Assembly (NCBI RefSeq): GCF_026210795.1
Contig: NC_089431.1
Span: 4,650,001-4,714,000 of the forward strand
Direction of reading: 5' to 3'
DNA: 64,000 nt
Source: Rhizophagus irregularis
Lineage: Eukaryota
In this document: in pieces, positions 26,741 to 59,270 of the stretch
How the letters are laid out: every line of letters starts with the position of its first letter
Numbering within the stretch: position 1 is the first letter of the stretch
Program-made: the position numbers and the translations under genes
Notes under the pieces: generated by a model
What the model saw: only the letters and a program-made list of their open reading frames with translations
Told to the model about the DNA's origin: nothing
Database searches by the model: none

Positions 26741-29700
26741 ATGACCAGACATCATAATAAGAAATCATTTTTAAGTCAAGCAAAATATGATATTCAAATG
26801 CGGGCAAGGGCTATCGAACATAGAAGAAAGATTAGAGAAGCCACTATGTATGGTAAGACTGCAGGGTTCACGATCGGGCTAGTTTCTTCCCAATTGCATC
26901 CAAGGTTACAGCCTGAACGGAATCTTACTTAGTTATTTTTGTAACTAATCTCTTTTTAATTTGTAGGGAACGTTCAAGAAAAAATAAGAAGAAAAGACAC
27001 TATGTATGGTAAGTATGAAGGGATGGTGCGCACTGCAGGGTTCACGATCGGGCTAGTTTCTTCCCAATTGCATCCAAGGTTACAGCCTGAACGGAGTCTT
27101 ACTTAGTTATTTTTGTAACTAATCTCTTTTTAATTCTTTAAAATTTATAGGACACGCTCAAGGAAAAATAATAAGAGAAGATACTATGTATGGTAAGTAT
27201 GAAGGGATGGTGCGCACTGCAGGGTTCACGATCGGGCTAGTTTCTTCCCAATTGCATCCAAGGTTACAGCCTGAACGGAGTCTTACTTAGTTATTTTTGT
27301 AACTAATTCCTTTTTATTTCTTTAAAATTTGTAGGGAACGCTCAAGGAAATTCGATTGGAGAAGATAGAGAAGATGCTATATATGGTAAGTATAAAAGGG
27401 ATGGTGCGCACTGCAGGGTTTACGATCAGGCTAGTTTCTTCCCAATTGCATCCAAGGTTACAGCCTGAACGGAGTCTTACTTAGTTATTTTTGTAACTAA
27501 TTCTTTTTTATTTCTTTAAAATTTGTAGGGAACGCTCAAGGAAATTTGATTGGAGAAGATAGAGAAGGTGCTATATATGGTAAGTATAAAAGGGATGGTG
27601 CGCACTGCAGGGTTCACGAACTGCAGGGTTTACGATCGGGCTAGTTTCTTCCCAATTGCATCCAAGGTTACAGCCTGAACGGAGTCTTACTTAGTTATTT
27701 TTGTAACTAATTCTTTTTTATTTCTTTAAAATTTGTAGGGAACGCTCAAGGAAATTTGATTGGAGAAGATTACTTAGTTATTTTTGTAACTAATCTTTTT
27801 TTTAATTCTTTAAAATTTGTAGGTAATGCTCAAGGAAAAATAAGAAGAAAAGACACTATGTATAGTAAGTATGAAGGGATGGTGCGCACTGCAGGGTTCA
27901 CGATCGGGCTAGTTTCTTCCCAATTGCATCCAAGGTTACAGCCTGAACGGAATCTTACTTAGTTATTTTTGTAACTAATCTCTTTTTAATTTGTAGGGAA
28001 CGTTCAAGAAAAAATAAGAAGAAAAGACACTATGTATGGTAAGTATGAAGGGATGGTGCGCACTGCAGGGTTCACGATCGGGCTAGTTTCTTCCCAATTG
28101 CATCCAAGGTTACAGCCTGAACGGAGTCTTACTTAGTTATTTTTGTAACTAATCTCTTTTTAATTCTTTAAAATTTATAGGACACGCTCAAGGAAAAATA
28201 ATAAGAGAAGATACTATGTATGGTAAGTATGAAGGGATGGTGCGCACTGCAGGGTTCACGATCGGGCTAGTTTCTTCCCAATTGCATCCAAGGTTACAGC
28301 CTGAACGGAGTCTTACTTAGTTATTTTTGTAACTAATTCCTTTTTATTTCTTTAAAATTTGTAGGGAACGCTCAAGGAAATTCGATTGGAGAAGATAGAG
28401 AAGATGCTATATATGGTAAGTATAAAAGGGATGGTGCGCACTGCAGGGTTTACGATCGGGCTAGTTTCTTCCCAATTGCATCCAAGGTTACAGCCTGAAC
28501 GGAGTCTTACTTAGTTATTTTTGTAACTAATTCTTTTTTATTTCTTTAAAATTTGTAGGGAACGCTCAAGGAAATTTGATTGGAGAAGATAGAGAAGGTG
28601 CTATATATGGTAAGTATAAAAGGGATGGTGCGCACTGCAGGGTTCACGATCGGGCTAGTTTCTTCCCAATTGCATCCAAGGTTACAGCCTGAACGGAGTC
28701 TTACTTAGTTATTTTTTGTAACTAACTTTATTTTTTTGAATTTTGTAGGGAACGTTCAAGAAGAAATGATAAGTAGAAGTAGTTCAGGCCATGAAAATTT
28801 AAATAGACTTCATAAATTTACGCCTGAAGTACAAAAACAACAAAATAATTCTAATTTTGATACCCATTATCAAAATTATTGTAGATGTTGCAATTACTCG
28901 TATTGCAACTGTAAGGCCAAAAATCATTCATATTTTTGTTCTGTATGTAAATTTTACAAATGTTATAAAGGAAAAGGAGGTATATATGTTGTGCCTCAGA
29001 TCGATTCTTGCCTCAGATCGCAACTCACGCACCTCAGATTGAAATCGTCATGTGAGGTGCGTGATGTGGATCATTGATAATCTGAGGTGCCTCGGTTTTA
29101 ATCTGAGGCAAATAAAAAATTTTTTTTTAAAAAAAATATCGATTGTTTTCTACTATTTTTTACTATTTTATTAATCTGAAATAGTGTTAGTTTAACTCAT
29201 TAGTAACTACACTAAAAATTACTTTAATTATTATAAAGTTTTTAATAAGAACGGTTCTTTACGGCTAATTGGCTCTTTGAGGTAAGTTCGGAAGCTTTTA
29301 TTTTATTTTTTTTTTTGTTTTTTTCTTTTTCGGAACGGTACTAACCATTCCTACCTTTTCTTTTTTTTGTTAAACATTTTAAGTAGGTTTTTTTTGTTTT
29401 TTTCTTTTTAGGAGCCGTATTTAACCCATTTCTTTTTCTTTTTTTAATAGGAACGGTTAAAATGTTTTAAGGTAGAATTCAATTTTTATTTTATTTTTTC
29501 TTTTTTGAACGGTACTAACCGTTTTTTTTTCTTTTTTTTTTAGCATTTCGGCCTGGGCTCTCTCCCGGTAAATAGGTATGCTATAATGTTTACTATAGTG
29601 TTAGTTTCTTTCTCCTAGAACGGTACTGACCGTTCTTTTTCTTTTTTTTTTTTTAGCAGTTCAGCCTGGACTTTCTCCCGGTAAATATTTGGTGCTATGG

Positions 29701-32700
29701 TGTCTATGGTGTTAGTTTCCTTCTCCTAGAACGGTACTGACCGTTCTTTTTCTTTTTTTTTAGCATTTCGGTCTGGTCTCTCTCCCGGTAAATATTTGGT
29801 GCTATGGTGTCTATGGTGTTAGTTTCTTTCTCCTAGAACGGTACTGACCGTTCTTTTTTCTTTTTTTTTTAGCATTTCGGTCTGGACTTTCTCCCGGTAA
29901 ATATTTGGTGCTATGGTATCTGCGGTGTTATTTTCTTTCTCATATGTTTAAATAATCGGCGTATTTGTAAAGTAGAACGGTACTGACCGTTCTTTTGTCT
30001 TTTTTTTTAGCATTTCGATTTGGACTCTCTCCCGGTAAATAGGTGGTGTTATGGTATCTATAATGTTGGTGTTTTCTTCTAGATATTAGCCATTCTCTTT
30101 TCTTTTTTTAATAGGAATAGATTAATGGTTTTTTGAGAATAGGTAAATAAGATTTTGAGTAAGAAAACATGGATGTTAGAGAAATGAAAATTTATAATAA
30201 GAGGAACGAAAAAAAATTTAATGTAAAATCTGATATTGAATAATATAAAAATTGTGTAATAAATAAAATCAACTTAAAAATTGAGATTATTGTCAGGTGA
30301 TATGTGTGATGCAAATCATTGATAATCTTTACAAAGACACGACATTTTTTTATTACAGTTTTTTTTTATGGAAAACACGTTTTATCGCGTTAACAGATTG
30401 AAAACACATGTTTTATCTCGTTACAGTCTGAAGACACATGCTTTATATCGTTACAGCTTGAAAACACATGTTTGTAGCTATATGTTTTGTCATGGAATAT
30501 ACGTTTATCAGCAGAGATACATTTAATGGAATTATTGAACGTTACATTGGCAACCTCCCTACGTCAAAGCAAGAAAAAGCTTTGATAAATCTTAATTTTT
30601 TAAATAAAATTAAAGAAGTATTGTTAGACCCTAAAAATAATACTATTTCTAATAAAAATACACGTTGAGATCCCCCAATTCCCCCTGTCATCAATTTACA
30701 AGGTTGCCACATCGAACGGGCATTCTCATGGTCGAACGAACGAATGGGCGAACAAACAAACGAACGAACGAGCAATCAAACGAACAAACACGTGATCAAA
30801 ACATAATTAACGAACAACAACATCAGCGAACAATATACAACAACATTCTTGGTTCACAAAATAAATAGCGTTAGTAATATAAAACGTTGAGCGATATAAA
30901 ATAAAATATACTTCTCTTTCCTCAAATTATATCCACTTTCGATTTCAAACTGCGATAGCTCTCGCTACGAATTATTATCTTCCAAAGGTATATATTTAAT
31001 TCATCTTAAATTTTCATTAATTAAAATTAATTAATCAAACATTAATTAAAGTTTAGGGCGAACCTATTACCTTTAATTAATATTAAACTTCATTAATAAT
31101 TAAAAAATAAAACTTATATTTTATTGAGTTCTGTGGATGCGAACTGTGGAATTACTTTGAATTCCGTTCTCTATATATACAATTTTTATGCTACTTTCTA
31201 TTCTATCTATATACTATCTTTTATGTTCTTTACATATTATCTTTGAACTATCTTTCTAATATACTATCTATATTTTAAATACGCTATCTTTTAATATGCT
31301 ATCTTATATATTATTTTATATGTTATCTCTTCTATTATTCAAATATTACATCGTAAAGAAATAATTTATAACCCATCTTTTATGGCTGTGCTATCTTTTC
31401 TTTAAAATAATCTTTCAAATATTATATCGTAAAGATATAATTCATCTTTTGTGGCTGTGTTATCTTTTTATATATGTTCTTTTTAATATGTTGTCTTTTA
31501 TATTCCATCTTTTTACTATCTTTTCATATTATCTTTTATATTATCTTGTGTTCTTTAATCTTTCCGACATTATTTTATATGTTCTTTTAATCCACTTTAT
31601 GTGTTTTGCTTATAATCTATCTTTTGTGGCTTATAATTATTCTTTCTTATCGTTCTTGTTGTTAAAGATCGCCAAGCCGCAATTGATCGACTCTATTTAT
31701 CCTATTGGTTCTTTGTCAATCATTCAATAAATATTACATCATGCAGATCATTACTCTTCTTAAATGTTTATCCTTTTCGGCTAATTATTTATCCATCCAC
31801 ACCAATCCACGATTAATTTGTTCGTTCTTAATACTTGATAATTACATTTGGCGGTGGTGTTTTATCATCTTCTCATGCTTGATATTCGGCCGTTTACATT
31901 ATCCCCCTCTTCGCTATTTGTGACCTCACAAATAACTTTAAAAGAATCGAACTCGGGTCTCATTCATAATAATTTTAATCGAATCGAACTCGGGTCTTAT
32001 CGAATACCTCTTTTCCTTTAATTACTATTTTTGGTGTAAATCCCCTTCGATCATAAAATTTCTTTAACCATTCTCCATTTTGTGGTGTTTTTAGTATTCT
32101 TCCATCCAATTCTTTAAGTTTGTATGCTCCATTCCCAAATTCTTCGTGAATTAAATATGGTCCTTTCCATTTGCTCTGTAATTTTCCAGACCATTGTTTC
32201 TCTCTCCATGCTTCATATAATAATACTTTTTCTCCTATTTCAAATTTAGGTTTTCTAATTCCTCTTTTGTCATGTTGTTGTTTTTGTTTCTCTTGAGCTT
32301 CTTTCACATTTTCTTTTATTTTCCTTCTTATTACCGGTAGCTCTTCAATTAATATTTTTATTCTATCAGTTAATGTTATTTTATTTTCGTCTTTATCTAA
32401 TGGTAGTTTTGCTCTTCTTCCGTATGTTGCATAAAAAGGTTTAATTCTTGTTGATGATTGCTTCTTTGTCCTATATGCAAATAATACAGATGGTATATGT
32501 TTATCCCAATTTTCTTCTCCTAATTTGGCCAATCCTTCGCATAAAGTTTTATTGAATCTTTCGACCAAACCGTTTGTTTGTGGCCTATATGGTGTACTTA
32601 ATCTATGATTTATTCCACATCTTTCTACTAATTCCTCCATCATTTTATTGTTAAAGTGAGTCCCTCTATCGCTAATTATTTTCTTTGGACATCCATGTCT

Positions 32701-35700
32701 ACAAATTATGTCCCTCCAAATAAATTCTACTACTTCTTTTGCTGTAGCTTCTTTTAGTGGTGCGGCCTCGGGCCATTTTGTAAAATAATCCATTGCTACT
32801 ACAATGTACTTATTTCCCTTTTCTGTCTCTTTTAACGGTCCAACTATATCTATCCCAATCATCTCAAATGGTTCATTTATCTTTATTGGCGTTAATTCGT
32901 TCTTTCCTCTTGGTTTTCCTCTCATTTGACAATTCCAACACGTCCTTACATATTCTTCTACATCTTCTTTCATATTTTTCCACCAATAATTTTCTTTTAT
33001 TCTATCTAATGTCGCTTCTATCCCAAAATGTCCTGATAATTCATTATCATGCATCATGTACATCAATCCCTCGTATTCATAATCCCTGATTACTCTAAAT
33101 CTGTTTTGTCCTTTTATTCTATATAAAATTCCTTCTTTCAATTCATATTTATTCTCTTTTTCGATATTGTCAATTATTCTCTTATAATTATTTTCCTCCA
33201 TAATATTTCTTTAATTGATTCTACTTCTGAGTTTGTTATTTTCGTTATGTGTTCTATATTTTTAGTTCTGTGCTCTTCTCCATTTTTCCACCTCTTTAAA
33301 TACTTTTCTCCAACTACTATTGTCATTTTTAACTTTTACTCGACTGTATCTTTTGGTATCTTTATACACACTTTGATTTTCTTCAAACATTTTAACCATG
33401 TCCAAATATTCATCCTTCTTTAATGTTGGATATGATGATTTTTCCGTTTTCTTTGTTTCTCTTCCAATGTAATTTTTCCAACATACGTCACCATCTTTCT
33501 CTAAAAATATCACTATTGATTTATCTATCGTTTCTTTCAGTCTGAATATTTCTTTTTCCATCTCATGATTTCCATGTGGAGTAATTAATCCTCTGTCAAA
33601 ACTTTTCGTCTTTTGATAATAATATTCACAATATGGTGATTTGTCTAAAATTATTATATCTGTATCTTCATCATATTCTAACATTCTTCTATTTATTTGT
33701 TCCACTACTTCTTTTCTAAATTTCCATTCTGTATCCATCTTTGATTCGTGAAATTCATCTTTATCTTTTCTTCTTCTTTTATAAGTATTGAATCTTACTT
33801 TTAATCCTTGTTTTTCCCATTCTTTAATTAAATTTTGTACTATACTTGTTTTTCCCAATCCATCTACCCCGTCAATTATTACTATTTCTGGTTGATCCTC
33901 TACTATCTTTAATAATCTACTTAATGCGTCGGCGTTCGTATTTTCTTTTCCCGACCTATGTATTACTTCAAAATTATATTGCTGTAATTCCATTACCCAT
34001 CTTATTTCGCATCTTTCGCACCAAGTTGTACTCTCATTTATTAATTGTCCATATGTTATATTCGCTCTACAATTTTTCACGTCTCCCTCAATGTCATAAG
34101 GTCGTATTTCATCAGTTAATCTTGGTCCATACTCTCTGGGTTTTGTTGGTCCTCCTGCTTCTCTCCATTTTCTTAGTCCTCCTGTTGGGTCATAATAATC
34201 TTGTCTTTTATTACTCCATTTCATTTTTCGTGGTCCTATCGGTTTATCCCAATTCTGTTCAGTTCGTTCAGGTATATAATTTGGTGTCGTTGTACCACTT
34301 GGTATTTCTCTATCATCCATTCTACTTCCTGCTCCTCTTAATTCTTCTTGTAAATTTCCTTCTTCATTATTATTTTTATATCCCACTGTTGGATTCGTCC
34401 TTCTTGTTTGTCTTCTTGTTTTTACTGCGTTATCTTTTGCATACAATTCACTATGATAATTTAATTCTCCATCTTCATAATCATCGTAATATCCTTGTGT
34501 ATAATATACTCCATCGTATTGTGGTTCCTCATATCCATTTTCATTATAATCACACTTTTCTTGGTCATCATATTCACCTGTCATATTCACTCTTGCATTC
34601 CTTTTTGCTTTTTGATTTTTACTCGAGCCAATTTCGGGTCCTTTTATATCCTCTTCCACTTCATCTTCAAGATTCCATATTGTTAAATATTTCCTCATAA
34701 TTTCATATGTTGTTATTATCTTTGCAGTTACTCCAAATTTTCTTGTTCTTTCAATTTCCGTTATTTCTACATCATATCCCATACTAGTCAATCTTAACAA
34801 TTCTTCTTCAGTTGTTATCGTTCCAATATCTCCAAAAATCTTCTGTAATCTTTTTACCCGATTATCAATTTCATCGATATCCTCTTCTTCACAATCTTTG
34901 CATACGGTTCCTCCTAATCTAAACATATCATTCATCCATCTTATCATTTCTATTTTCAATCTTCTAAGCATTCTTTTATCTTTAAATAGATCGCTTCTTC
35001 CAATCTTTCGATTCCATCTTTCGGTTCTATATATTTACTATGCCATATTTTACTATTAATTTTTACTGCGCCTTAAAATTTCAAAAATTTTTCTAAGTCC
35101 ACAATCTCCTCAGGCTGCGGAGGTTTTTACTGTGCCATCAAATTTATCTTTTATCACCGATCTCCATAATTTCACATGTCACATCTTTTCGTCACTGTGA
35201 TTCATAATTTCACTTATCACATCTTTTTGTCACATCTTTTTGTCACCAAGATCCATAATTTCACATATCACAAACTCCAAAATTTTCATAACTTTTAAAG
35301 TTTGCGAACTTCCAATCTTTCTTATCGTCCACATAAATCCTTCTTACTATATATTCTATATTATATAAATTAATCTATAACACACAAAATGTCGTTCTTT
35401 TCAGATAAATGTCTTTCTTTTCAAATAAATGTTCTTTTTCAAATAAATATTCCTTTTCAAATAAATGTTCTTCTTTTAAATAAATATCCTTCTTTTCGGA
35501 TTTTACTCTATTATTAAATACTGCACGTAATGTTCATTATACGGCTCGTTAATGTGTAAATATCCTTCTATTTTTTCTTCTTTTAACGGAACATTGTAAT
35601 GAAAGCGTGAACTAGGACACTACACCAGGAACCCTCATCTGAAATGTAGCCTAGGACCTGTAACAATACAACATATCCGTCTTTTCCTCCTTCGTTGGCT

Positions 35701-38700
35701 GACTTGTCTCTTAACGGGTGAATCTAACCTTCCAAAATCCAGTTTCAAAAGTCATCAGCTATCCATAAAACTCATCTAAACCAACTTTCTTAAATTGGTG
35801 GACCTATACTGAGCTTATCTCTATCTTTTACCCGCTGGAGATACCCCACATTGAAATAAAAGCACGACAGTTTTCAGGTTTGTCCTATTTTATCCATTCA
35901 ATGTTTCTTGATAGTAGGTGTCTTTACAATCTTCATTCCCCGTCCCCAAAGCAATTCGTACGTTATTGAGCTGGGTATCCAGATTTGACGTAACCCATAC
36001 GTTATAATCTTTAATATCGAAGAATAAAAATTTTCCAATTTTGAGCATTTATCCAAAATCCAAACTCAGAGGTAACCCATACCACACAGATGAACCCCGG
36101 ACAATACATTGGTGTTCTCCCATTATTAATCTTTATTCCAAAATTTATCTTTCACTTCCCCATCTCCTTATGAAATTTCTCAGGTACTTTATTCCCGAAA
36201 GAAACATTCTTGTGCTTTCTATCGATTAAGTGATTACTTGCACAACTTCAAACTCCAATCTTTCGCCTTTTCAAGTTTTTAACTCGTTAAATCCTCGTTG
36301 ATTTATTGGTTCCTTTTGAACTCGTCAAAACCTGAAATCTAAAAATAAATTCTAAAATAAAATATTGATTAATAATACCTATCAGTGACTTACTAACGAA
36401 ATTAAATTTTCATATTCATTATAATAATAATCATGTGATGATGATCATTTCCTTTCTTGCGAGCATGCACCATATGAGATCCCCCAATTCCCCCTGTCAT
36501 CAATTTACAAGGTTGCCACATCGAACGGGCATTCTCATGGTCGAACGAACGAATGGGCGAACAAACAAACGAACGAACGAGCAATCAAACGAACAAACAC
36601 GTGATCAAAACATAATTAACGAACAACAACATCAGCGAACAATATACAACAACATTCTTGGTTCACAAAATAAATAGCGTTAGTAATATAAAACGTTGAG
36701 CGATATAAAATAAAATATACTTCTCTTTCCTCAAATTATATCCACTTTCGATTTCAAACTGCGATAGCTCTCGCTACGAATTATTATCTTCCAAAGGTAT
36801 ATATTTAATTCATCTTAAATTTTCATTAATTAAAATTAATTAATCAAACATTAATTAAAGTTTAGGGCGAACCTATTACCTTTAATTAATATTAAACTTC
36901 ATTAATAATTAAAAAATAAAACTTATATTTTATTGAGTTCTGTGGATGCGAACTGTGGAATTACTTTGAATTCCGTTCTCTATATATACAATTTTTATGC
37001 TACTTTCTATTCTATCTATATACTATCTTTTATGTTCTTTACATATTATCTTTGAACTATCTTTCTAATATACTATCTATATTTTAAATACGCTATCTTT
37101 TAATATGCTATCTTATATATTATTTTATATGTTATCTCTTCTATTATTCAAATATTACATCGTAAAGAAATAATTTATAACCCATCTTTTATGGCTGTGC
37201 TATCTTTTCTTTAAAATAATCTTTCAAATATTATATCGTAAAGATATAATTCATCTTTTGTGGCTGTGTTATCTTTTTATATATGTTCTTTTTAATATGT
37301 TGTCTTTTATATTCCATCTTTTTTACTATCTTTTCATATTATCTTTTATATTATCTTGTGTTCTTTAATCTTTCCGACATTATTTTATATGTTCTTTTAA
37401 TCCACTTTATGTGTTTTGCTTATAATCTATCTTTTGTGGCTTATAATTATTCTTTCTTATCGTTCTTGTTGTTAAAGATCGCCAAGCCGCAATTGATCGA
37501 CTCTATTTATCCTATTGGTTCTTTGTCAATCATTCAATAAATATTACATCATGCAGATCATTACTCTTCTTAAATGTTTATCCTTTTCGGCTAATTATTT
37601 ATCCATCCACACCAATCCACGATTAATTTGTTCGTTCTTAATACTTGATAATTACATTTGGCGGTGGTGTTTTATCATCTTCTCATGCTTGATATTCGGC
37701 CGTTTACAACGTAGTTGGATTAAGAAAAAGTTTAAGCTTGAGGAAATAACACCTGGTGACTATAGGGTAATTGTTGCAGCAAACAACAACCCAGTGTTGG
37801 CTGTAGAAAATATGTACGAAGTTTTATGTCGAACTCATGCAGAAATTACACAGCATGGTGGGCAAAGACAGACATGGAAGTCTATTATAGAAAGGTGGGG
37901 TTGGATTAAACAAGATATTGTAGAACAATTTGTTAATAATTGTACAATATGTGCAGTACGAAAACCATCATTTCACCCTTTAGCAGCAAAGCCTATCATT
38001 GCAAGGAATTTTCTATCTCGTGTGCAAGTAAATATTTAATTTATTTTATATTCTTTTTTTTATTATTATTATATTTAATTTATTTTTTATTTTTTTTTAG
38101 ATGGATCTTATTGATTTATCATTTGACGCAGATGGCGAATATAAATATATTTGCCATGTAAGAGATCACTTTACAAGATTCTCTTGGGCCAGAGCTCTTA
38201 CTTCAAAAAGAGCTATTGAAGTAGCAGCATATCTTTTTGAACTTTTCCATTTTTTAGGCTCTCCTCCAACTATTTTACAGTCTGACAATGGGAAAGAGTT
38301 TTGTGCGGGAGTAATAAAGGAATTAATTGAAATGTGGCCTACAGTAATGATTATAAATGGTCGTCCACGACATCCGCAGTCTCAGGGCCTAGTTGAACGT
38401 GCTAATGGAATTTTACAACAAAAGCTTGGTAAGTGGCGAGAGAATACTGGCCGAACTGATTGGTCTTTTGGTCTTAAATTTGTTATTTCAGCTATGAACA
38501 ATTCATGGTGTCGGTCCCATAAAAAAACACCATATGAACTCGTATATAGTGATAAACCACGTGGAAATTGTACTTTAATTGATGAATTATTTGCAAAAAA
38601 TATCTATAATGAAGAGGATATACCTGATACTATACAAATATATGATAGTATTGAAGATTTGGATAGTGATATAATAGATGATTTGCAAGGTAAGGTTTTT

Positions 38701-40922
38701 AATACTAAAAAAATTATTAATTTCAATAATATTTATTAAATTTAATAAAATGTTTTTTTTAATCTAATTGCCAAATTTTATTATTTATCATACTAATACA
38801 ATTAGAATCAAATATTCCAGTTCAACAATTAGATATTGAAAGAGCAGTGGTCCAAGATCAAGATAATGAAAATAATAGACATATAGTACTTATTGATCCA
38901 GTCCTTTTAGATATTACAAATAATACACAGCACGAAGTATTAAGAAATATGGCTCGTCAAGACCTTCAAGATTATACAAATAAGATGGCCAATCAAATGA
39001 GCAAGGGAAGAAAAAGAATTAAAGAATATCAGATTGGTGATCTGGTAAGGGTTGCTGTTCCTAAAATTGATAGATTTAGTGTTGATCGACCCACTTTGCC
39101 ATGTAAAATTATGGAAAAAACTGAAAATAATAAATATAGTTTGGGATCAAAATTTGGAATAATTGGAGTGTATTATTCTGCTAGTGAATTAGAACCACTT
39201 GGAACAGAAACTTTTCCTGAATTAGAAGTCATTCCCTTAAACAAAATATCAATTAGAGAGGCTGCACGTCTTCAGAGTGCGGGTTTAGTATCAGGGGGTA
39301 TATGTAATTGTAAAGGTGAATGCAATAGTAATAAATGTCGCTGTAAGAAGGCAGGTGGAGACTGTAGCAGTAGATGCCATAGTGGACGTTCATGTCAAAA
39401 TAAATGATGCGGCATTTGTTATATGTAAAAATATATTAATTAGTCAAAAAAATGCATTATTACTGATGTCTTATATGAAAAAATAATAAAGAATTTGAAT
39501 TTAAGTAATTTCATGTATGCTTAAATCATTGATTTTATTTGTTAATAGATTATACACAATTTTATATTATTCAATATCAGATTTTACATTAAATTTTTTT
39601 TCGTTCCTCTTATTATAAATTTTCATTTCTCTAACATCCATGTTTTCTTACTCAAAATCTTATTTACCTATTCTCAAAAAACCATTAATCTATTCCTATT
39701 AAAAAAAGAAAAGAGAATGGCTAATATCTAGAAGAAAACACCAACATTATAGATACCATAACACCACCTATTTACCGGGAGAGAGTCCAAATCGAAATGC
39801 TAAAAAAAAAGACAAAAGAACGGTCAGTACCGTTCTACTTTACAAATACGCCGATTATTTAAACATATGAGAAAGAAAATAACACCGCAGATACCATAGC
39901 ACCAAATATTTACCGGGAGAAAGTCCAGACCGAAATGCTAAAAAAAAAAGAAAAAAGAACGGTCAGTACCGTTCTAGGAGAAAGAAACTAACACCATAGA
40001 CACCATAGCACCAAATATTTACCGGGAGAGAGACCAGACCGAAATGCTAAAAAAAAAGAAAAAAGAACGGTCAGTACCGTTCTAGGAGAAGGAAACTAAC
40101 ACCATAGACACCATAGCACCAAATATTTACCGGGAGAAAGTCCAGGCTGAACTGCTAAAAAAAAAAAGAAAAAAGAACGGTCAGTACCGTTCTAGGAGAA
40201 AGAAACTAACACTATAGTAAACATTATAGCATACCTATTTACCGGGAGAGAGCCCAGGCCGAAATGCTAAAAAAAAAAGAAAAAAAAACGGTTAGTACCG
40301 TTCAAAAAAGAAAAAATAAAATAAAAATTGAATTCTACCTTAAAACATTTTAACCGTTCCTATTAAAAAAAGAAAAAGAAATGGGTTAAATACGGCTCCT
40401 AAAAAGAAAAAAACAAAAAAAACCTACTTAAAATGTTTAACAAAAAAAGAAAAGGTAGGAATGGTTAGTACCGTTCCGAAAAAGAAAAAAACAAAAAAAA
40501 AATAAAATAAAAGCTTCCGAACTTACCTCAAAGAGCCAATTAGCCGTAAAGAACCGTTCTTATTAAAAACTTTATAATAATTAAAGTAATTTTTAGTGTA
40601 GTTACTAATGAGTTAAACTAACACTATTTCAGATTAATAAAATAGTAAAAAATAGTAGAAAACGATCGATATTTTTTTTAAAAAAAAATTTTTTATTTGC
40701 CTCAGATTAAAACCGAGGCACCTCAGATTATCAATGATCCACATCACGCACCTCACATGACGATTTCAATCTGAGGTGCGTGAGTTGCGATCTGAGGCAA
40801 GAATCGATCTGAGGCACAACATATATAGGACTAAAAGTTGCATGTATTGGAGAAAAGATAACAATGGTAATTTTAGAATATTTGATGTTCGTTTTCATCA
40901 AATTAAGTTACCCTGGGAATAA
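26741..40922 (+). CDS. Tandem-exon repeat protein with Cys-rich C-terminus; last exon split by the Ginger-like insertion
   Basis: Exon 1 is 26741-26852. Phase-1 exons of 42 or 51 bp follow (26967-27008, 27151-27192, 27335-27385, 27529-27579, ...-27864, 27997-28038, 28181-28222, 28365-28415, 28559-28609). The terminal exon 28749-28986 joins 40826-40922 in frame once the element and one TATA are removed. Confidence 0.6.
26853..28748 (+). repeat. Tandem array of ten intron+exon units (about 160-210 bp) with a 1030-bp higher-order duplication
   Basis: Core ctgcagggttcacgatcgggctagtttcttcccaattgcatccaaggttacagcctgaacgg occurs ten times. Exon starts 26967/27997, 27151/28181, 27335/28365 and 27529/28559 are each offset by 1030 bp. 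Confidence 0.95.
28987..30257 (+). repeat. Left terminal inverted repeat (about 1.27 kb)
   Basis: Reverse complement of 39554-40821 with few visible mismatches. Clustered cctcagat motifs in the outer 125 bp and five 107-138-bp subrepeats. Confidence 0.92.
30370..30472 (+). repeat. About 3.5 copies of a 30-bp tandem repeat just upstream of the transposase ATG
   Basis: gaaaacacatgttttatctcgttacagtct-like units. Confidence 0.7.
30666..31898 (-). repeat. 3' LTR
   Basis: Direct repeat of 36475-37708. The only difference I noticed is one T in a homopolymer near 31510/37320. Confidence 0.95.
31899..31914 (-). other. Polypurine tract
   Basis: Minus strand reads gcgaagagggggataa immediately before the TG of the 3' LTR. 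Confidence 0.85.
31975..33201 (-). CDS. Gypsy-type integrase (HHCC, DDE, GPY/F) as a separate ORF
   Basis: HDNELSGHFG..CWNC, GIDIVGP, SDRGTHF, PQTNGLVERFN, WKGPY. Confidence 0.92.
   Translation of the reverse strand: MEENNYKRIIDNIEKENKYELKEGILYRIKGQNRFRVIRDYEYEGLMYMMHDNELSGHFGIEATLDRIKENYWWKNMKEDVEEYVRTCWNCQMRGKPRGKNELTPIKINEPFEMIGIDIVGPLKETEKGNKYIVVAMDYFTKWPEAAPLKEATAKEVVEFIWRDIICRHGCPKKIISDRGTHFNNKMMEELVERCGINHRLSTPYRPQTNGLVERFNKTLCEGLAKLGEENWDKHIPSVLFAYRTKKQSSTRIKPFYATYGRRAKLPLDKDENKITLTDRIKILIEELPVIRRKIKENVKEAQEKQKQQHDKRGIRKPKFEIGEKVLLYEAWREKQWSGKLQSKWKGPYLIHEEFGNGAYKLKELDGRILKTPQNGEWLKKFYDRRGFTPKIVIKGKEVFDKTRVRFD
33262..34971 (-). CDS. Fusion ORF: gag-region remnant + RNase H C-terminal tail + P-loop thymidylate/deoxynucleoside-kinase-like domain
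   Basis: RWVMELQQYNFEVIHRSGKENTNADALSR is the Gypsy RNase H end. It is followed by IVIIDGVDGLGKTS (Walker A), IIILDKSPYCEYYYQ and IVIFLE. Confidence 0.75.
   Translation of the reverse strand: MLRRLKIEMIRWMNDMFRLGGTVCKDCEEEDIDEIDNRVKRLQKIFGDIGTITTEEELLRLTSMGYDVEITEIERTRKFGVTAKIITTYEIMRKYLTIWNLEDEVEEDIKGPEIGSSKNQKAKRNARVNMTGEYDDQEKCDYNENGYEEPQYDGVYYTQGYYDDYEDGELNYHSELYAKDNAVKTRRQTRRTNPTVGYKNNNEEGNLQEELRGAGSRMDDREIPSGTTTPNYIPERTEQNWDKPIGPRKMKWSNKRQDYYDPTGGLRKWREAGGPTKPREYGPRLTDEIRPYDIEGDVKNCRANITYGQLINESTTWCERCEIRWVMELQQYNFEVIHRSGKENTNADALSRLLKIVEDQPEIVIIDGVDGLGKTSIVQNLIKEWEKQGLKVRFNTYKRRRKDKDEFHESKMDTEWKFRKEVVEQINRRMLEYDEDTDIIILDKSPYCEYYYQKTKSFDRGLITPHGNHEMEKEIFRLKETIDKSIVIFLEKDGDVCWKNYIGRETKKTEKSSYPTLKKDEYLDMVKMFEENQSVYKDTKRYSRVKVKNDNSSWRKVFKEVEKWRRAQN
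36459..36472 (-). other. Primer-binding site (possibly tRNA-Gly)
   Basis: Minus strand reads CA-ta-TGGTGCATGCTCGC just inside the 5' LTR, complementary to a tRNA 3' end ...GCAUGCACCA. The tRNA identity is inferred. Confidence 0.7.
36475..37708 (-). repeat. 5' LTR
   Basis: Direct repeat of 30666-31898. Confidence 0.95.
39554..40821 (-). repeat. Right terminal inverted repeat (about 1.27 kb)
   Basis: Mirror image of 28987-30257. Confidence 0.92.
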
Positions 40923-42035
40923 ATGAATAAACAAATTAAAGATTAATTTTTTTTTAATGCATTTTCATTATTTATTTATTTATTATAATTCTTTATACAC
41001 AACAAAATATAATAGCATTTTTTTTTAGATTAGAGGATCATGCAGGAACAAGTTTAATTATAAATTTTTTCACACAATATATATATATATATATATTAAT
41101 ATTATATACGATCTTTTAATTTCCGGAATTAAATAAGAAATTTAACAAAAATCTAGAACGGCTCATAAATTACATATTGTAAAATACACTATTTTTTTTT
41201 TTAACATTTTTTAACACTAAACGTCAAATTTTTATAAGATCATTTTTAAAATTTTTAAAGAAATTTATTCTAATAAAAGAAAGAAAAAAATTATTTTATC
41301 GTTATTGACCTTAAAAAAAAAAACTTAACAATTAAAATATGACGCTATCTTAGAATTATTCAAGAAAGGTAAACAGAATAAGGATTAGATAAATAAAGCA
41401 GAAGAAAAAAATAATATAAATTTCTCATGTCATTTCTTTCCTAACTTTTAGCATATTTTTTCACTCATATTAAGAGGTTACTCATATTAAGAGGATGTTT
41501 AATGAAAGTTGTTTCATTCGGTTTAAATGATCGGCTTTTTGCACCGGTCCGCGCTAAGCCACAAAAAAAAAATTTAAAATTTAAATTAATAGATATAATT
41601 CTCCTGTCGAAATTTACTCAGCTTGGAAGTATTCAGATAAAATCGGCACAACCCGTTGTGTATCTTTAACCCTATAATAAAATGTAACAAGTAATACTAA
41701 TAATTCTGAAAAGGAACATTAGTATATAGTGCTCAGAACGAGTGTATAAGAAATTAAGCTAAATATCCAAGACATAACTAAACAAGTATTATTACACGAT
41801 CTACGAAAAACAACTTGATTTACCAAAAAACAATATGCACGCCGTGCATATGAATGAATATTCGGTGTTCTGCATAAATACATCATTGTACACTTTTAGT
41901 AAGAATTTTCCGTAAATCTAATGTAAAAAGTGTTGATCAATTTATACTATTGCGATAATGATGAACCGATTCTGCGCCAAAAAATAACGATATTTATTTA
42001 CTACAATTTTTTTCTTTTTTTATTCTTTTTCAAAA

Positions 42036-43475
42036 ATGGGCTATAATAAGCTATTATCAAAATTGGCAGAAAATATACTCGAAATTTTAGACGATGATGA
42101 ATATTATAATATTACAATTGAAGTTGGCGATGACCCTAACGTGAGAATATTTCGTGCTCACATGGTTATTTTAAAATATCGTTCTCCTTATTTGCGAAAA
42201 ATATTGTCGACCAATAAAAAAATTGACGGAACTTTGACAAGTATTAAATTACCAAACATTTTACCCGAGACTTTTCAAATAGTATTAAGGTAAAAAATAA
42301 AAGATAATGTAAATTAAATATATTTATATTTTTTTTTTTACTTACAATCGTTTTATTTTAGATATATTTATGGGGGGGAAATTTCTTTAGAAGAATATGA
42401 TATTTCAGATATCATTAAAATATTAATTGCCATCAAAGAACTTGGTCTTGAGGAATTAATTCCTTGTATAGAAACCTTTTTGATTAAAAATAAAAAAAAT
42501 TGTATGGTACAGAATTTTGATTTGATATATCGAATAAGTTTTGAAAACAATTCTTTCCAAGAACTTCAAAAATATTGTATCGAATTAATTTCCAAAGAGC
42601 CGAATAAGATATTTAATTCGCCAAAATTTTCTTCAATTCCAGAAAATCTTTTAATTACACTTATTCAAAATGAAAATATTCGAGTGAATGAAGTACAAGT
42701 TTGGGAACATGTGATTAAATGGGGTCTCGCTCAAAATCCCGAACTTTCCTCTGATCCTAAAAGCTGTTCAAAAGAAGATTTCAATACTTTAAAAAATACT
42801 TTACAACATTGTATTCCTTTTATTAGATTTCGTAACTTAACTTCCAAAGAATTTTCAAGCAAAGTATTGCCTTATAAAAAAGTTTTGCCAAAGGAATTAT
42901 ATAAGAAGTTATTGGATTATTTTTTGGGTAATGATAGTAACCAGATTATATCGAAAAATATTGATTCTAAAATTATTACATCTCAACATGCTGAATTAAT
43001 CTCAAGATGGGTCGATAGATTAGAAATTACAAACAAGATACCTCCTTTATACAATTTCGAATTATTATTTCGCGGTTCTCGTGATGGTTTTACGCCAAGT
43101 AAATTTCATGAAATTTGTGATAATAAGTCTCGTACTATCACGATTTTTAAAGTAAGCGGAAGTAGCGAAATTCTTGGAGGATACAATCCAATAAAATGGA
43201 CATCTGGTGGATTTAGTAGTACTAAAAATAGTTTTATATTCTCTTTTAAAAACGGTTATGATACTGAAAATTGTATTATAAGCCGCGTGAAAAATGGAGT
43301 GAAGGCTATATATAATAGTCCTTGTTTTTTACCATCATTTGGTAATGATGACTTATCATCAAATGGTTCAGTGATTTGTTGCAAGAGATCTAAAAAATCT
43401 TCTTATGAAAAACCGATCAGAGAAACAAGTAATGAAGATGAAATAGAAGAATTCGAGGTGTTTAGAATTTTTTAA
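42036..43475 (+). CDS. BTB/POZ-BACK-TLDc protein (2 exons)
   Basis: IEVGDDPNVRIFRAHMVILKYRSPY, intron, YIYGG, EVQVWEHVIKWG, LLFRGSRDGF, ILGGYNPIKW, EFEVFRI. Confidence 0.9.
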
Positions 43476-43885
43476 GATCGATTTTTAATTTTTCCATAAA
43501 GAATTAATGATGGTGTAAATTTCAAGTATAATATTTTTATAAATTAATCTTAAGAACATTTTTTTATTTATTTATGTATTATTTTTTTTTTTAATAAAAA
43601 AATAAAATAAAAAAAAAAAATTTAGTAGTTTTTAAGTCACATATCCTTGTGTTTAATTTTTACTGTCGCGTTCTGCCAAAGGGTAAATTATTTGCCGACG
43701 ATAAATCTTATTGGTAAATTTTATTGTTAATGTGTGCTGTGCAACTTATTTCTTGTGATCTTTGTGGAACTCGGATTCATTAATTTTCCATCCCGTTTAA
43801 TATAAAAGGGTTGACTATCCACAAGTTGGGTTGGAATTTTACATTCTTATTTAAAAAAAAAAAAAATTATATAGACTCGGTAATA

Positions 43886-45388
43886 ATGACTGATAATAAA
43901 CTTTTACCAAAATTATCACAAAATTTACTTGAAATTTTAGATGATGAAGAATATTATGATATTACGATTGAAGTTGGCAATGACCCTAACGTAAAAGTAT
44001 TTCGCGCTCATATGGTTATTTTAAATTATCGTTCTCCTTATTTGCGAAGAATTTTGTCAACTAATAAAAAGAAAAATGATGAAACTTTGACAAGCATCAA
44101 ATTACCAAATATTTTACCCGAAATTTTTCATATAATCTTAAAGTAAGAAATTATTTTAATAATATGATAAACGAACGTTATTTTGTTGTTGTTTTAATAA
44201 TATTATGATTTTAATTTTATAAACGTTTAATTTACTTTTAGATATATTTACGGGGGGAAACTTTCTTTTGAAGAATGTGATATTTCTGATATTATTAAAA
44301 TTTTAATTACCGCCAACGAACTTGGTCTTCAAGAATTAACTCCCTTTTTAGAAACCTTTTTGATAGAAAGCAAAAAAGACTCGATAGATCAGAATTTTGA
44401 TTTGATATATCAAATAAGTTTTGAAAACAATTCTTTTCCAGAACTTCAAAAATATTGTAATAAATTAATTTCCAAAGAACCGAATAAGATATTTAATTCG
44501 CCAAGATTTTCTTCAATTCCAGAAAAACTTTTGGTTACGATTATTCAGAATGATAATCTTCAAATGAACGAAGTTCAAGTTTGGGAACATGTGATTAAAT
44601 GGGGTCTTGCACAAAATCCTGAACTTTCCTCTGATCCGAAAAGCTATTCAAAAGGTGATTTCGATGCTTTAAAGAATACTTTACAACAATGTATTCCTTT
44701 TATTAGATTTCATAATTTTACTTCCAAAGAATTTTCAAAAAATATATTACCTTATAGAGAAATCTTGCCAAAGGAATTGTATGAAAATTTATTGAATGAA
44801 TTTTTGGATAACAACTACAAACCAATTAAAAAGTCGAACCCTCGTATAATTGAAGAGACTAAGGAAACGAATTCAAAGAATATTGATTCCAGAATTATTA
44901 CATTTCAACATACTGAATTAATATCAAAATGGATTGATAGATTAGAAATTACGGACAAGATAAAAAATATTTATGAATTTAAATTACTATATCGTAGTGA
45001 ATTTGATTTTCCAGGAAAATTCCATGAAATTTGTGATAATCAACCCGGTACTGTAACAATTGTTAAATTGAAAGGTAGTAACGAAATTCTTGGAGGGTAT
45101 AATCCAATAGAATGGAAATATGAAGAAAGTTATAGCGTTACTAAAGATAGTTTTATATTTTCGTTTAAGAATAGTGATAGTATTGAAAATCATATTTTAA
45201 GCCGTGTAAAGGATGAAGCAAAAGCTATATATAATGGAAACGATGGACCATCATTTGGTTTTAGGGACTTGCGTATATACGGGAATAAATTGAAATTGTA
45301 CTGCCGAAAAGCTTCTTACGAAAAACCGATCACGGGAGCGGACACTGTTATTGAAAAATATGAAGTATTCAGAATTGTGAAAGCTTGA
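43886..45388 (+). CDS. BTB/POZ-BACK-TLDc protein (2 exons)
   Basis: Same motifs and intron position as the neighbouring copies. Confidence 0.9.
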
Positions 45389-45747
45389 AGTATATTTTTA
45401 AACGCAACCTCTTTATTGTTTATTAAATTTATATATTCTTTTAATAAAAACTTTGATTCTCCATAATATTAATGAGCTACAGAAGTAATTTAATAAATTT
45501 CCATCAATCATTTAATGTGTCAAAGTAACAAAAGTATTTTTATATTGCCAATGATTTTACTAAGTAGAATTTTTAAATTTATTAAGTTATTAAATCGAGT
45601 TTTAAATTCGACCTACATTTTTATGGTAAAGATCTGCATCCTATTTAATAATATAAAAAGGCTTTCGACTATTTAGAATTTTCTAATTTCTTCTGAAAAA
45701 AAAAAAAAAAAAAAAAAATCGAAAAAAAAAATCGATATAAACAGATA

Positions 45748-47237
45748 ATGACTAATAAATTTTTACCAAAATTATCACAAAATTTACTTGAAATTTTAGA
45801 TGATGAAGAATATTATGATATTACAATTGAAGTTGGTAATGACCCTAACGTAAAAGTATTTCGAGCTCATATGGTTATTTTGAATTATCGTTCTCCTTAT
45901 TTACGAAGAATTTTGTCAACTAATAAAAAGAAAAATGATGGAACTTTGACAAGTATTAAATTACCAAATATTTTACCTGAAACTTTTCATATAATTTTGA
46001 GGTAAGATAAACGAACATTATTTTATCATTGTTTAACAAATATAATTTTAATTTTATAATCGTTTAATTTACTTTTAGGTATATTTATGGAGGGAAAATT
46101 TCTTTTGAAGAATGTGATATTTCTGATATTATTAAAATTTTAATTACCGCCAACGAACTTGGTCTTCAGGAATTAACTCCCTTTTTAGAAACCTTTTTGA
46201 TAAAAAGCAGAAAAGACTCGATAGAACAGAATTTTGATTTGATATATCAAATAAGTTTTGAAAACGATTCCTTCCTAGAACTTCAAAAATATTGTAATGA
46301 ATTAATTTCCAAAGAACCGAATAAGATATTTAATTCGCCAAGATTTTCTTCAATTCCAGAAAAACTTTTGGTTACGATTATTCAAAATGATAAACTTCAA
46401 ATGAGCGAAGTACAAATTTGGGAACATGTGATTAAATGGGGTCTTGCTCAAAATCCTGAACTTTCCTCTGATCCAAAAAGCTATTCAAAAGAGGATTTCA
46501 ACACTTTAAAGAATACTTTACAACAATGTATTCCTTTTGTTAGATTCCATGACTTAACTTCCAAAGAATTTTCAAACAACATATTACCTTATAAAAAAAT
46601 CTTACCAAAGGAATTATATGAAAATTTACTAAAAGATTTTTTGGATAATAATTACAAACCAATTAAAAAGTCAAAACCTCGTATAATTGAAGAGATCAAG
46701 GAAATAAATCCAAAAAATATTGATTCTAGAATTATTACATTTCAACATGCTGAATTAATATCAAAATGGATTGATAAATTAGAAATTACGGACAAGATAA
46801 GAAATCATTATGAATTTAAATTACTATATCGCAGTGGATTTGATGCACCTAAAGGATTCCATAAATTTTGTGATAATCAACCTGGTACTGTAACAATTGT
46901 TAAATTGAAAGGTAGTAACGAAATTCTTGGAGGGTATAATCCAATAGAATGGAAATCTGAAGGATGTTATAGCGTTACTAAAGATAGTTTTATATTTTCG
47001 TTTAAGAATATTGATAGTATTGAAAATCATATTTTAAGCCGCGTAAAGGATGAAACAAAAGCTTTATATAATGGAAATTATGGTCCGTCATTTGGTTATT
47101 GTGACTTGCGTATATACTGCTCTGAATATACGGATAAACTGGGAATTTACTGTAAAAAAATTTCTTACGAAGAACCGATCACGGGAGCGAACCCTGTTAT
47201 TGAAAAATATGAAGTATTCAGAATTGTGAAAGCTTGA
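45748..47237 (+). CDS. BTB/POZ-BACK-TLDc protein (2 exons), recent tandem paralog of 43886-45388
   Basis: High similarity including the 3' flank (45389-45747 vs 47238-47615). Confidence 0.9.
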
Positions 47238-47615
47238 AGTATATTTTTAAACGCAACTTCTTTATTGTTTATTTATATATTTTTTTAAATAAAAATAATA
47301 TTAATGAGCTACAGCAGTAATTTAATAAATTTAATAAATTTCCATCGATCATTTAATGAGCATGTCGAAGTAACAAAAGTTTCTTACGCTATTTATATTT
47401 CCAATGACTTTACTATGTAGAATTTTTAAAATTTATTTAGTCAAGTTATTATGCCTGTAAAATCGAGTTTTTCGTGTTGTTTGATTCGGCCTGCATTTTT
47501 ATGGTAACGATCTGCATCCTGTTCAATATAAAAGGCTTTCGACTATTTAGAATTTTCTGAAAAAAAAAAAAAAAAAAAAAAATATTTGAAAAAAAAAAAA
47601 TCGATATAACAGATA

Positions 47616-49117
47616 ATGACTGATAAATTTTTACCAAAATTATCACAAAATTTACTCGAAATTTTAGATGATGAAGAATATCATGATACTAAAATTGAAG
47701 TTGGTAATGATCCTAACGTAAAAATATTTCGTGCTCATATGGTTATTTTGAATTATCGTTCTCCTTATTTGCGAAGAATTTTGTCAACTAATAAAAGTAA
47801 TGACGGAACGTTGACACGTATTGAATTACCAAATATTTTACCCGAAATTTTCCAAATAATCTTAAGGTAATATTATAGAATATTTTGTTTTCATTTCTAT
47901 AGACTAATTTTGATCTTATAAATATTTTTATTTATTTTTTTTTTAGATATATTTATGGAGGAATACTTTCGTTAGAAGATTATGATGCTACAGACATTAT
48001 TAAAATTTTGATTGCCGCAAGTGAACTAAGTCTTCAAGAACTAATTCTTCATTTACAATCCTTTTTGATTAAACACAAAGTGAATTGGATGATGCAAAAT
48101 TTTAGTTTGATATACCAAACGAGCTTTAGAAACAATTCTTTCTTAGAACTTCAAAAGTTTTGTATGGAATTAATTTCTAAAAAACCGGAAAGAATTTTTA
48201 AATCACCTGAATTTACTTCAATTCCAGAAAAATCTTTAATTTCGCTTATTCAAAATAATAATATTCGTATGAGTGTGGCTCAGGTTTGGGAACATGTGCT
48301 TAAATGGGGTATTGCCCAGAATCCTGAACTTTCTTCAGATCCTTCAAACTATTCAAAGGATGATTTTATTGCTTTAAGGAAAACTTTACAACATTGTATT
48401 CCTTTTATTAGGTTTCGTAATCTAACTCCCAAAGAATTTTCTAGCAAAGTGTTACCTTACAAAAAGGTTATACCTAAAGAGTCGTATAAAAATTTAATTA
48501 AATATTTTTTGGATCATGATTATAATCAGATCAACAAGTCAGAACCTTCCAAAAGTATCGATTCAACAATTATTTCAGATCAGCATGTTGAATTGATTTC
48601 GAAATGGATAGACAAATTGGATGATGTTAATGCATCAGATACGGAAACTCTTGCTTCTATGACTTCAAAATCAAATTCGTTATATGAATTCAAGTTATTA
48701 TTTCGTGGACCTCGTGATGGACTAACACCTGATGAATTCTATGAAATTTGCGATAATCAGTCTTTTACTGTAACAGTTATTAAAGTGAAAAATAGTAACG
48801 AAATTCTTGGAGGGTATAATCCAATTTCATGGTATAACAATCCGACATACGGCATCACTAATGATAGTTTTATATTCTCTTTTAAGGATAAGAATGATTA
48901 TATTTTGAGTCGTGTAAAAGATCCAAAGTTTGCTATAGTTAATAGCACTTTTTATGGTCCATCATTTGGTAATGGTGATCTTATATTAAGAGGAAACAAC
49001 TTTTATAATAATAGTTATTGTAGTAAACATTCTTACGAAAGAGCAATCAGGGAAACTGAAGGAATATTTTCGGTAAAAGAGTATGAAGTATTTCAAATTG
49101 TAAAGAATTCATTCTAA
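47616..49117 (+). CDS. BTB/POZ-BACK-TLDc protein (2 exons)
   Basis: FRAHMVILNYRSPY, VWEHVLKWG, ILGGYNPISW, GPSFG, EYEVFQI. Confidence 0.9.
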
Positions 49118-55494: not shown

Positions 55495-56944
55495 CCAATT
55501 TTAAATATTTCAAGTTCTAAAGAGTTTGGATAACCAATTTTACTGATCTGTTTTTTATAAGTTGTATAAGTTGTATTTTCACCAAAAATTTGGTATAATC
55601 GTAGGTCACCATTACCAAATGATGGACCCTTACTATATCCAACGTTCTTACTTATAGATTCCTTAGATTCCTTTTCATTCTTTACGCGACTTAAAATGTA
55701 ATTTTCAATATATTTACTATCAAATGAGAATGTAAAATTATCCTTAGTAATACCATAATTGCGTTACTATCTTCAACTTTAACCAATGTTACAGTATGAG
55801 GTTGACCTATATAAATTTCATGGAACTTTTTAAACCTGTTAAACCTCTCATCACGAGAATCACGAAGTAGTCGTTTATCTGTACCGTAATTTCTAATCTA
55901 TCAATCCATTTTGAAATTATTTCAACATGTTGAGATGCAATTATCTTAAAATGTTATTTAATCTTGTTAGTTGAAATCTTTTGCTTATCCAATAAATTAT
56001 TATCATATAATACCTGATGCAAATGATATATATATTCTTGTGACTCGCTATCACTATTTGCAATATCTAATGCAGATTTTTGTTTTGAAATAGATATATA
56101 TATATAGGGTAATGATTCCTTGCTGTCATTATTCAAAAAATAATTTAGTAAATCATTATATAATTCCTTTGGTAAGATTTTTTTATAAGATTTACTTTAT
56201 TCAAAAATTCCCTTGAAGTTAAATTACGAAATCTAATAAAAGGTATACAATGATGTAAAGTATTCTTTAAAACATTAAAATCATCTCTTAAAAACTAAGC
56301 TTGTAGGATCAGAAGAAAGTTCTGGATTTTGAGCGAGTCCTCATTTAATTACGTGTTCCTATACTTCAATTTCTTTCATTTGAAAATTATCATCTTGGAT
56401 AAGCGTGAATAAAAGTCTTTCTGGAATTGTAGAAAAATTTGGAGAATTAAATATCTTTTCTGGCTCTTTAGAAATGAAATCAGTACAATATTTTTAAAGT
56501 TCTGGGAAAGAATCGTTTCTAAAGCTTATCTGATATACTAATTCAAAATTTTGTTCCATCCAGTTTTTTTTTGTTTTTCAATTAGCTAGGTTCATTAGTA
56601 ATAACCAAGATTTTAAATGATATCTGAAATATCATATTCTTCCAAAGAAAGTCTTCCTCATAAATATATCTGAAAAAAAAAATCACTTTGTACCTTAATA
56701 ATATGTGAAAAAAATCGGGTGAAATATTTGGTAATTAATGTGTTAAAATTCAAACATTTGTCTTTTATTAGTTGATAAAATTCTACGCAAATAAGGAGAT
56801 CGATAATTTAAAATAACCATATGGGCACGAAATACTTTCACATAAGGGTCACTACCAACTTCAATTGTAATATCATAATATTCTTCATCATCTAAAATTT
56901 CAAGTAAATTTTGATAATTTCGGCAAAAGTTTATTATCAACCAT
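55495..56944 (-). pseudogene. BTB-BACK-TLDc pseudogene, tandem copy of 57347-58982
   Basis: Colinear similarity to the adjacent gene with multiple frameshifts, stops and deletions. Confidence 0.85.
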
Positions 56945-58982: not shown

Positions 58983-59270
58983 TATAATCTTGAAAGGAAA
59001 GGGTGAGGAAAAAATTTGTTCAAACTTCCGAGCTTTTTTTTTGAACAAAATTGATCGGTTAAATTACCTCCGTATAGTAACTTAATGTGCAACAGGGATC
59101 ATACGTTCCACAAACTAACTCATAAAGCATTAAATCGCAAATTTAATTCCACTTACGCAATTATTTGCTGATCCTCATGTGATGGGTAGAAATATTGTGT
59201 AACAATTGCGGGGCTATGATTTATAATTAAAATGAAAACGTTCTGAATCTCACGTTCTCAATTTTCAAAA

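Follow-up and report, generated by a model that had tools for sequence, protein, structure and literature searches.

Introduction

Enzymes of nucleotide metabolism have been described inside the pol genes of retroelements. According to the accessible parts of the relevant papers, a dUTPase lies between RNase H and integrase in non-primate lentiviruses (PMC4531489), as an earlier note on the DNA studied here had stated for some retroviruses, and between protease and reverse transcriptase (RT) in LTR retrotransposons of rotifers, planarians, and fungi (PMC5408684, PMC6431247). Other enzymes captured by Gypsy elements include, in the portions of the reports available to us, AlkB in orchids (PMC9289625) and DEDDy and GDSL enzymes in rotifers (PMC5408684). 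Nucleotide kinases are encoded by large DNA viruses and phages. No earlier report of a nucleotide kinase in a retrotransposon was found in the literature open to us; supplements, Repbase, Dfam, AM-fungus transposable element libraries, and subscription journals might hold such an annotation. In the available text of PMC11075540, PMC5408684, PMC6431247, PMC8647823, PMC11952901, PMC3248453, and PMC9289625, the word "kinase" was either absent or, in the papers on AM fungi, referred to expanded host gene families. Within these parts of the literature, dUTPase is the captured nucleotide enzyme of retroelements, and no kinase is named.

Here we describe an apparently unreported domain of predicted kinase fold that is strongly conserved throughout a lineage of fungal Gypsy elements. 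Like dUTPase, it would be a nucleotide-metabolism enzyme inside pol, and the lentiviral dUTPase occupies the same site between RNase H and integrase. However, dUTPase is a hydrolytic enzyme with a different fold, whereas the element domain is by prediction a P-loop kinase with a biosynthetic role. With the captured AlkB, DEDDy, and GDSL enzymes it shares the lineage-wide fixation of an extra enzyme; it differs from them in being a kinase, which is either fused to Pol or encoded by an open reading frame (ORF) of its own.

Results

A young Ty3/Gypsy copy with an in-frame kinase-like domain

The window analyzed was a 64,000-nucleotide stretch of the Rhizophagus irregularis genome (contig NC_089431.1, positions 4,650,001 to 4,714,000). 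Its minus strand contains a Ty3/Gypsy element with the hallmarks of this group, namely, TG...CA LTR ends, a target duplication, a primer-binding site, and a polypurine tract. The two LTRs aligned over 1,233 bases with 0 mismatches and 1 indel. The features are listed below by window position.

30662-30665 and 37709-37712: target duplication ACGT, 4 bp, flanking both LTRs
30666..31898, minus: 3' LTR, from the LTR alignment
31899..31912, minus: polypurine tract
31975..33201, minus: integrase ORF with H2C2 zinc finger, rve core, and GPY (PF17921, E = 1e-21; PF00665, E = 1e-14)
33262..33900, minus: kinase-like domain (predicted TMPK/dNK fold), 212 aa plus stop
33457-33483, minus: LID
33499-33516, minus: IVIFLE
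33613-33645, minus: DKSPYCEYYYQ (DKSPY motif)
33763-33789, minus: N-x-F/Y-KRRR-x-D loop
33847-33870, minus: P-loop GVDGLGKT
33913-33936, minus: NADALSRL, RNase H end motif, in the same frame as the kinase
33913..34002, minus: C-terminal ~30 aa of Ty3/Gypsy RNase H (RWVMELQQ...NADALSRL), matching the RNase H end of full RT-RNase H proteins P0002-P0009
34003..34028, minus: in-frame deletion junction; protease and RT lost, along with all but the tail of RNase H
34021..34971, minus: gag-derived part of ORF1, internally deleted; 34021-34533 shares 61% identity with the gag end of P0032
36456..36472, minus: primer-binding site, beginning TGG, 2 nt inside the LTR
36475..37708, minus: 5' LTR (TG...CA), from alignment with the other LTR

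The primer-binding site is presumably tRNA-Gly-like; no tRNA genes were found within the window.

The kinase-like domain comprises residues 358 to 569 of a 569-aa protein encoded by the minus-strand ORF 33262-35034 (ATG at 34971, stop at 33262-33264), and it begins four residues past NADALSRL. Thus the earlier claim that the frame continues from this motif into about 210 aa with three kinase motifs was confirmed, with 212 aa in frame. The domain is not a chance reading, given a match to PHROG thymidylate kinase (TMPK) family 761 and a confidently predicted fold, both described below.

Upstream of the domain, a deletion has put what remains of gag into one frame with the RNase H tail. Contigs of undeleted copies part from the window sequence at 34003 and 34028. 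The part of ORF1 upstream of the gag-like segment 34021-34533 had no match outside its own subfamily among the fetched proteins. All six members of the window protein's cluster have an identical junction peptide, which points to a small, recently mobile, non-autonomous subfamily. Neither protease nor RT was found in the window copy by a survey of the three minus-strand frames and a Pfam scan. The copy is non-autonomous, retaining only the RNase H tail and integrase from the series protease-RT-RNase H-integrase.

The proposed location of the kinase between RNase H and integrase therefore holds for the order of domains, with RNase H reduced in this copy to its final ~30 residues. A link to integrase was not seen here, since the kinase ends in a stop codon and integrase is a separate ORF (31975-33201). 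The domain is intact in this RT-less copy, as the earlier note had stressed; with LTRs that differ by 1 indel and no substitutions, the copy is very young, and its intactness is no evidence of selection.

The LTR element is itself nested in a DNA transposon (28981-40827) that has long inverted repeats, 99 to 100% complementary, with arms within 28981-30250 and 39560-40827. This transposon, which we take to be Ginger-like, contains an intron-split H2C2/rve integrase-like gene at 37497-39407.

The domain recurs across a Rhizophagus lineage

Protein searches returned 39 longer homologues and 57 of similar length, with identities of 46 to 100%. Every homologue with a species name came from Rhizophagus irregularis or R. 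clarus, and in the named R. irregularis proteins the kinase domain was 96 to 100% identical to that of the window. RT and RNase H domains precede the kinase in many homologues, including intact RT-RNase H polyproteins of R. irregularis. Some metagenome members are already called "thymidylate kinase" by JGI automatic naming; on the whole, the domain marks a retrotransposon clade whose proteins bear uninformative or wrong database names.

We examined 23 metagenome loci, all retrieved via the kinase, so that kinase-less sister elements fall outside the sample. RNase H was found upstream in 11 and integrase downstream in 15; 21 had either neighbor and 5 had both. The 2 loci with neither had flanks of no more than 300 nt, and no other domain order occurred among the 23. 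The complete Ty3/Gypsy order is present in locus L002, which reads gag end, protease, RT-RNase H-kinase, integrase.

The kinase is fused directly to RT-RNase H, fused via a linker, encoded by its own ORF (in several members), or, in some predicted proteins, fused to integrase. The last arrangement is represented by P0031 (cluster of 47), and the gene models concerned may be spliced predictions. The loci L002, L008, L011, L012, L015, L018, and L021 have pol divided among separate ORFs, with an integrase ATG that either overlaps the stop codon of the kinase or comes shortly after it. This spacing suggests that translational coupling, and not a single polyprotein, may operate in loci with a split pol.

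One subfamily has an additional 144-aa ORF between kinase and integrase (L013:655-1086; its start also in L014:930-1127). The N-terminal part of the L013 ORF matches the F-box family PF00646 at 24.6 bits (cutoff, 20.5), and the ORF is possibly a second captured module.

No joint of RNase H straight to integrase was present in the contigs examined, which by their nature do not show absence, and three low-depth contig joints delete parts of the kinase. A single run on record as RNA covered gag only, and run X18, whose status as RNA is a guess, gave low-depth coverage of RNase H and kinase.

The kinase is under purifying selection

Under a GY codon model, the maximum-likelihood omega was 0.040 in a set of 20 kinase sequences, compared with 0.035 in 13 integrase and 0.042 in 8 RNase H sequences. 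The sets consisted of stop-free matches above a length cutoff among the 23 loci, with the window sequence added for kinase and integrase. Fixing omega at 1 for the kinase cost 785 lnL units. These values show that the kinase is under purifying selection on par with integrase and RNase H. Median pairwise Nei-Gojobori ratios were higher, 0.26 for the kinase (101 of 190 pairs) and 0.33 for integrase (44 of 70 pairs), being inflated by saturation; the ratio between the window and L001 was 0.069. The domain is thus neither confined to this copy nor evolving neutrally, the outcome that would have spoken against a functional enzyme.

Distances in the kinase correlated with those in RT (rho = 0.61, P = 0.001, 16 sequences) and integrase (rho = 0.42, P = 0.007), and weakly with those in RNase H (rho = 0.18, P = 0.041). 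The weak last correlation suggests recombination, and together the distances fit long co-inheritance plus some recombination.

The predicted fold lies between TMPK and deoxynucleoside kinases

An AlphaFold2 model of the kinase, built from a 36-row alignment, had a pLDDT of 90.2 and a pTM of 0.88. The P-loop, Walker-B strand, and LID of the P-loop kinase superfamily are all present in the predicted model, which matched known kinases with Z scores above 16 over 179 to 197 residues. VIA-align tied Staphylococcus aureus TMK, at a Z of 16.6 and an rmsd of 2.9 over 179 aligned residues, with human dCK, at a Z of 16.4 and an rmsd of 3.3 over 197; identity to solved kinases was only 10 to 16%. Likewise, a wide fold search gave Z scores of 16.3 for dGK and 16.2 for TMK, as opposed to 12.9 for adenylate kinase and 11.7 for PPK2. 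The best structural matches were thus TMPK and deoxynucleoside kinase (dNK) enzymes and not an unrelated ATPase, and the resemblance to both families that had been read from the motifs extends to the predicted fold. Because of the tie, structure does not fix the acceptor.

FtsY led the sequence searches of PDB through its P-loop alone and was ruled out by fold.

AM fungi hold large polyphosphate stores, and a PPK2-like, polyphosphate-driven kinase could tap them. PDB-type sequence searches did return weak matches to PPK2 P-loops (E = 0.03), and the basic cluster of the element domain could bind polyphosphate. However, the PPK2 fold match falls 4 to 5 Z units under those of TMPK and dNK, with an rmsd of 4.2, and no PPK2 Pfam match was listed for the window protein. 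We consider a polyphosphate-driven enzyme very unlikely.

Sequence profiles gave a similar picture. Residues 6 to 207 matched phrog_761 with an E value of 5.7e-14, and 33 of 36 family members also matched phrog_761; this is a broad TMPK profile with matches in all 14 control genomes. The curated cutoffs were missed, with 19.4 bits against 27 for PF02223 and 19.4 against 83.25 for TIGR00041, and no dNK Pfam match was listed for the window protein. In profile comparisons by hhalign, a set of 10 TMPK-like proteins scored 98.5% and a set of 7 phage dNKs scored 93.9%. Atlas feature matches of the window domain (0.95 to 0.96) were to viral, archaeal, and bacterial clusters that are TMPK-like or unnamed, and serve as a lead only. 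Since no curated family cutoff was passed, the domain appears to represent a new, uncharacterized kinase family within the TMPK/dNK clade, between the two and neither TMPK nor dNK proper.

Active-site residues favor a monophosphate acceptor

Residues were counted in 122 proteins with an aligned length of 150 residues or more, a redundant set in which gaps were scored as misses. The TMPK P-loop pattern GxDGxGK[ST] is present in the family, with D13 in 109, K17 in 112, and T/S18 in 112 of the rows. In the central motif, D86 was found in 118 rows and K87 in 119, and arginine in none; the corresponding D-R arginine was invariant in 10 TMPK-like controls. Thus, the D-R-to-D-K change pointed out earlier is the fixed state of the family, which has D-K-S in place of the TMPK D-R arginine and the D/E-R-S motif of dNKs. 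The LID contains a single arginine, R147, in all 122 rows and lacks the dNK pattern R-x-R-x-x-E. Other positions were similarly constant: R44 (116 rows), R62 (121), E92 (116), Y95 (119), and Y165 (121). Position 38 was Asn in 110 rows, Asp in 5, and Glu in none, and a conserved basic KRRR loop, or arginine cluster, follows it. This position after strand 2 is, we presume, the site of the dNK catalytic Glu, as mapped by sequence register and without superposed coordinates.

Compared with TMPKs (PF02223, TIGR00041, phrog_761), the element domain is alike in its predicted fold, its GxDGxGK[TS] P-loop, its D-x-x-x-x-[SC]-x-x-x-Y-Q register, and the lack of a general base; it is unlike them in having D-K for D-R, in scoring below the Pfam cutoff, in its low sequence identity, and in being encoded by a retrotransposon. 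With dNKs (dCK, dGK, dAK, Dm-dNK; PF01712) and NDUFA10 it shares the predicted fold and D/E-x-S-x-Y-x-D/E followed by helix-Gly-helix, whereas it has no catalytic Glu after strand 2, a TMPK-type P-loop, and one LID arginine.

The dNK-like features could indicate a salvage enzyme that phosphorylates the 5'-OH of deoxynucleosides, the first step to dNTPs. The top Foldseek match was Giardia deoxyadenosine kinase, dCK and dGK tie with TMK, and the hhalign score to phage dNKs is 93.9%. Similarity to dNK-family stretches is also seen in the central motif and in the helices after it, where DKSPY[SC]E and FDRGxI resemble ERSPYSD/FRQGYLS and DRSIYED. Nevertheless, the P-loop is that of TMPKs, the hhalign score to TMPK-like proteins is higher, and Asn occupies the position at which dNKs would have their catalytic Glu. 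A salvage kinase is therefore unlikely. With the general-base position taken by Asn and an arginine cluster behind it, a phosphorylated acceptor (dNMP) seems the better candidate. Nucleoside-monophosphate kinases do without a proton acceptor and rely on Arg or Lys fingers of the LID, according to a preprint (10.1101/2022.06.23.497301). The TMPK-type P-loop, the D-K motif, the absent dNK Glu, and the arginine cluster would all fit a kinase of this type.

The lysine in place of the D/E-R arginine, together with only one LID arginine, means that activity may be altered or lost. NDUFA10 is a dNK-derived subunit of complex I, and its presence among the fold matches (Z = 13.6) raises the idea of a module that is non-catalytic or binds nucleic acid, acting as a nucleotide sensor, an RNA binder, or a nuclear-import helper via KRRR. 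The conserved basic KRRR loop and the two changes just named agree with such a role. However, the P-loop, the Walker-B Asp, the LID Arg, and the pocket residues are nearly invariant, also in the Nudix fusions of ~35% identity described below, a pattern typical of an enzyme. We rate a non-catalytic module as quite improbable.

Divergent relatives carry a Nudix domain

HMMER searches of 1.84 billion proteins yielded 71 matches, which form a compact family; the weakest (E of ~1e-4) include P-loops of TMPK, dNK, and FtsY. Nudix-kinase fusions, mostly on short metagenome contigs, are among the most divergent relatives. An N-terminal Nudix domain scored above the Pfam cutoff in P0033, P0115 (cluster of 71), P0116, and P0138. 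P0191 was also counted among the Nudix-kinase fusion proteins. In the model of P0033, a MutT-like domain at ~44-189 precedes the same kinase fold; the MutT-like fold match spans 46-188 (Z = 13.0).

Many element-borne kinases have an extension before the kinase that resembles the final strand and helix of the P0033 Nudix domain, a weak match (6.3 bits) whose score was reached by 0 of 200 shuffles. The same extension matched the segment that precedes the kinase in P0124, a protein lacking a Nudix match (1 of 200 shuffles), and marginally P0116 (12 of 197 shuffles). In the same shuffle test, no significant match was obtained to P0115, P0191, or P0152. No Nudix box was seen in the element-borne copies examined. 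The sequence similarities suggest that the element kinase may descend from a Nudix-kinase ancestor.

One could suppose that the domain, coming from such a module, serves as a pool-cleaning or counter-defense enzyme acting on damaged, modified, or signaling nucleotides and not on bulk dNMPs. The Nudix domains of the divergent relatives, the match of the extension to the Nudix end of P0033, and specificity positions unlike those of both TMPK and dNK are in line with this. On the other hand, the extension match is weak and fails for three of the proteins compared, and the element-borne copies examined lack a Nudix box, which makes a pool-cleaning enzyme doubtful.

A tentative possibility for the origin, which we hold to be less probable than the monophosphate kinase assignment itself, is that the AM-fungus element clade acquired a Nudix-kinase module, lost the Nudix part of it, and at present carries out a dNTP-building step of its own next to RT. 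The kinase chemistry would then be new (D-K, Asn, arginine cluster), and its substrate might be non-canonical. If this capture took place, retrotransposons would have their first biosynthetic enzyme of nucleotide metabolism.

As for a donor, tblastn gave no match in 50,697 phage records. IMG/VR yielded no relative to queries with P0033, P0115, P0191, or the family profile, and the family profile found none among GTDB genomes either. The Nudix-kinase profile had weak matches only, generic TMPK-like proteins where examined. In a phylogeny with other kinases, of the kind the earlier note had called for, 50 family rows grouped together (SH-aLRT 97); this tree, from a quick search and with long branches, named no sister group.

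A possible role in dNTP supply

On balance, the conserved kinase-fold domain between RNase H and integrase of this Rhizophagus Ty3/Gypsy lineage is likely an ATP-dependent nucleoside-monophosphate kinase that would raise dNTP supply for reverse transcription. It would be made with or beside Pol, and the retained P-loop Lys and Thr, Walker-B Asp, and LID Arg suggest that it is catalytic. Using ATP, it would convert dNMP to dNDP, with a monophosphate as the probable acceptor. Members with an RT-RNase H-kinase fusion may deliver it into the particle together with RT; packaging with RT would not be general, since the kinase is a separate ORF in several members. The added dNTP supply would support reverse transcription and may be of benefit where dNTP pools are low. 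The window copy, a young non-autonomous derivative, would need intact partners. That a kinase next to RT is kept at an omega of 0.04 suggests that retrotransposition in these fungal symbionts is limited by the supply of nucleotides. The protein is small (212 aa) and apparently well folded, as predicted, which makes the idea directly testable.

Other features of the window

Several protein-kinase-like gene fragments were recognized by eye at 964-22797. At 41988-49114 and 56298-58985, a ~1.85-kb gene is repeated in tandem and in inverted orientation; it is BTB/POZ-like by eye and typical of expanded Rhizophagus families. An open frame of 1,239 codons with 108-nt repeats (49650-53366) is likely Sel1-like. 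Two imperfect tandem-repeat arrays, at 26858-28773 and 61943-63996, consist of units of ~184 to 210 nt and AT-rich units of ~90 nt, respectively.
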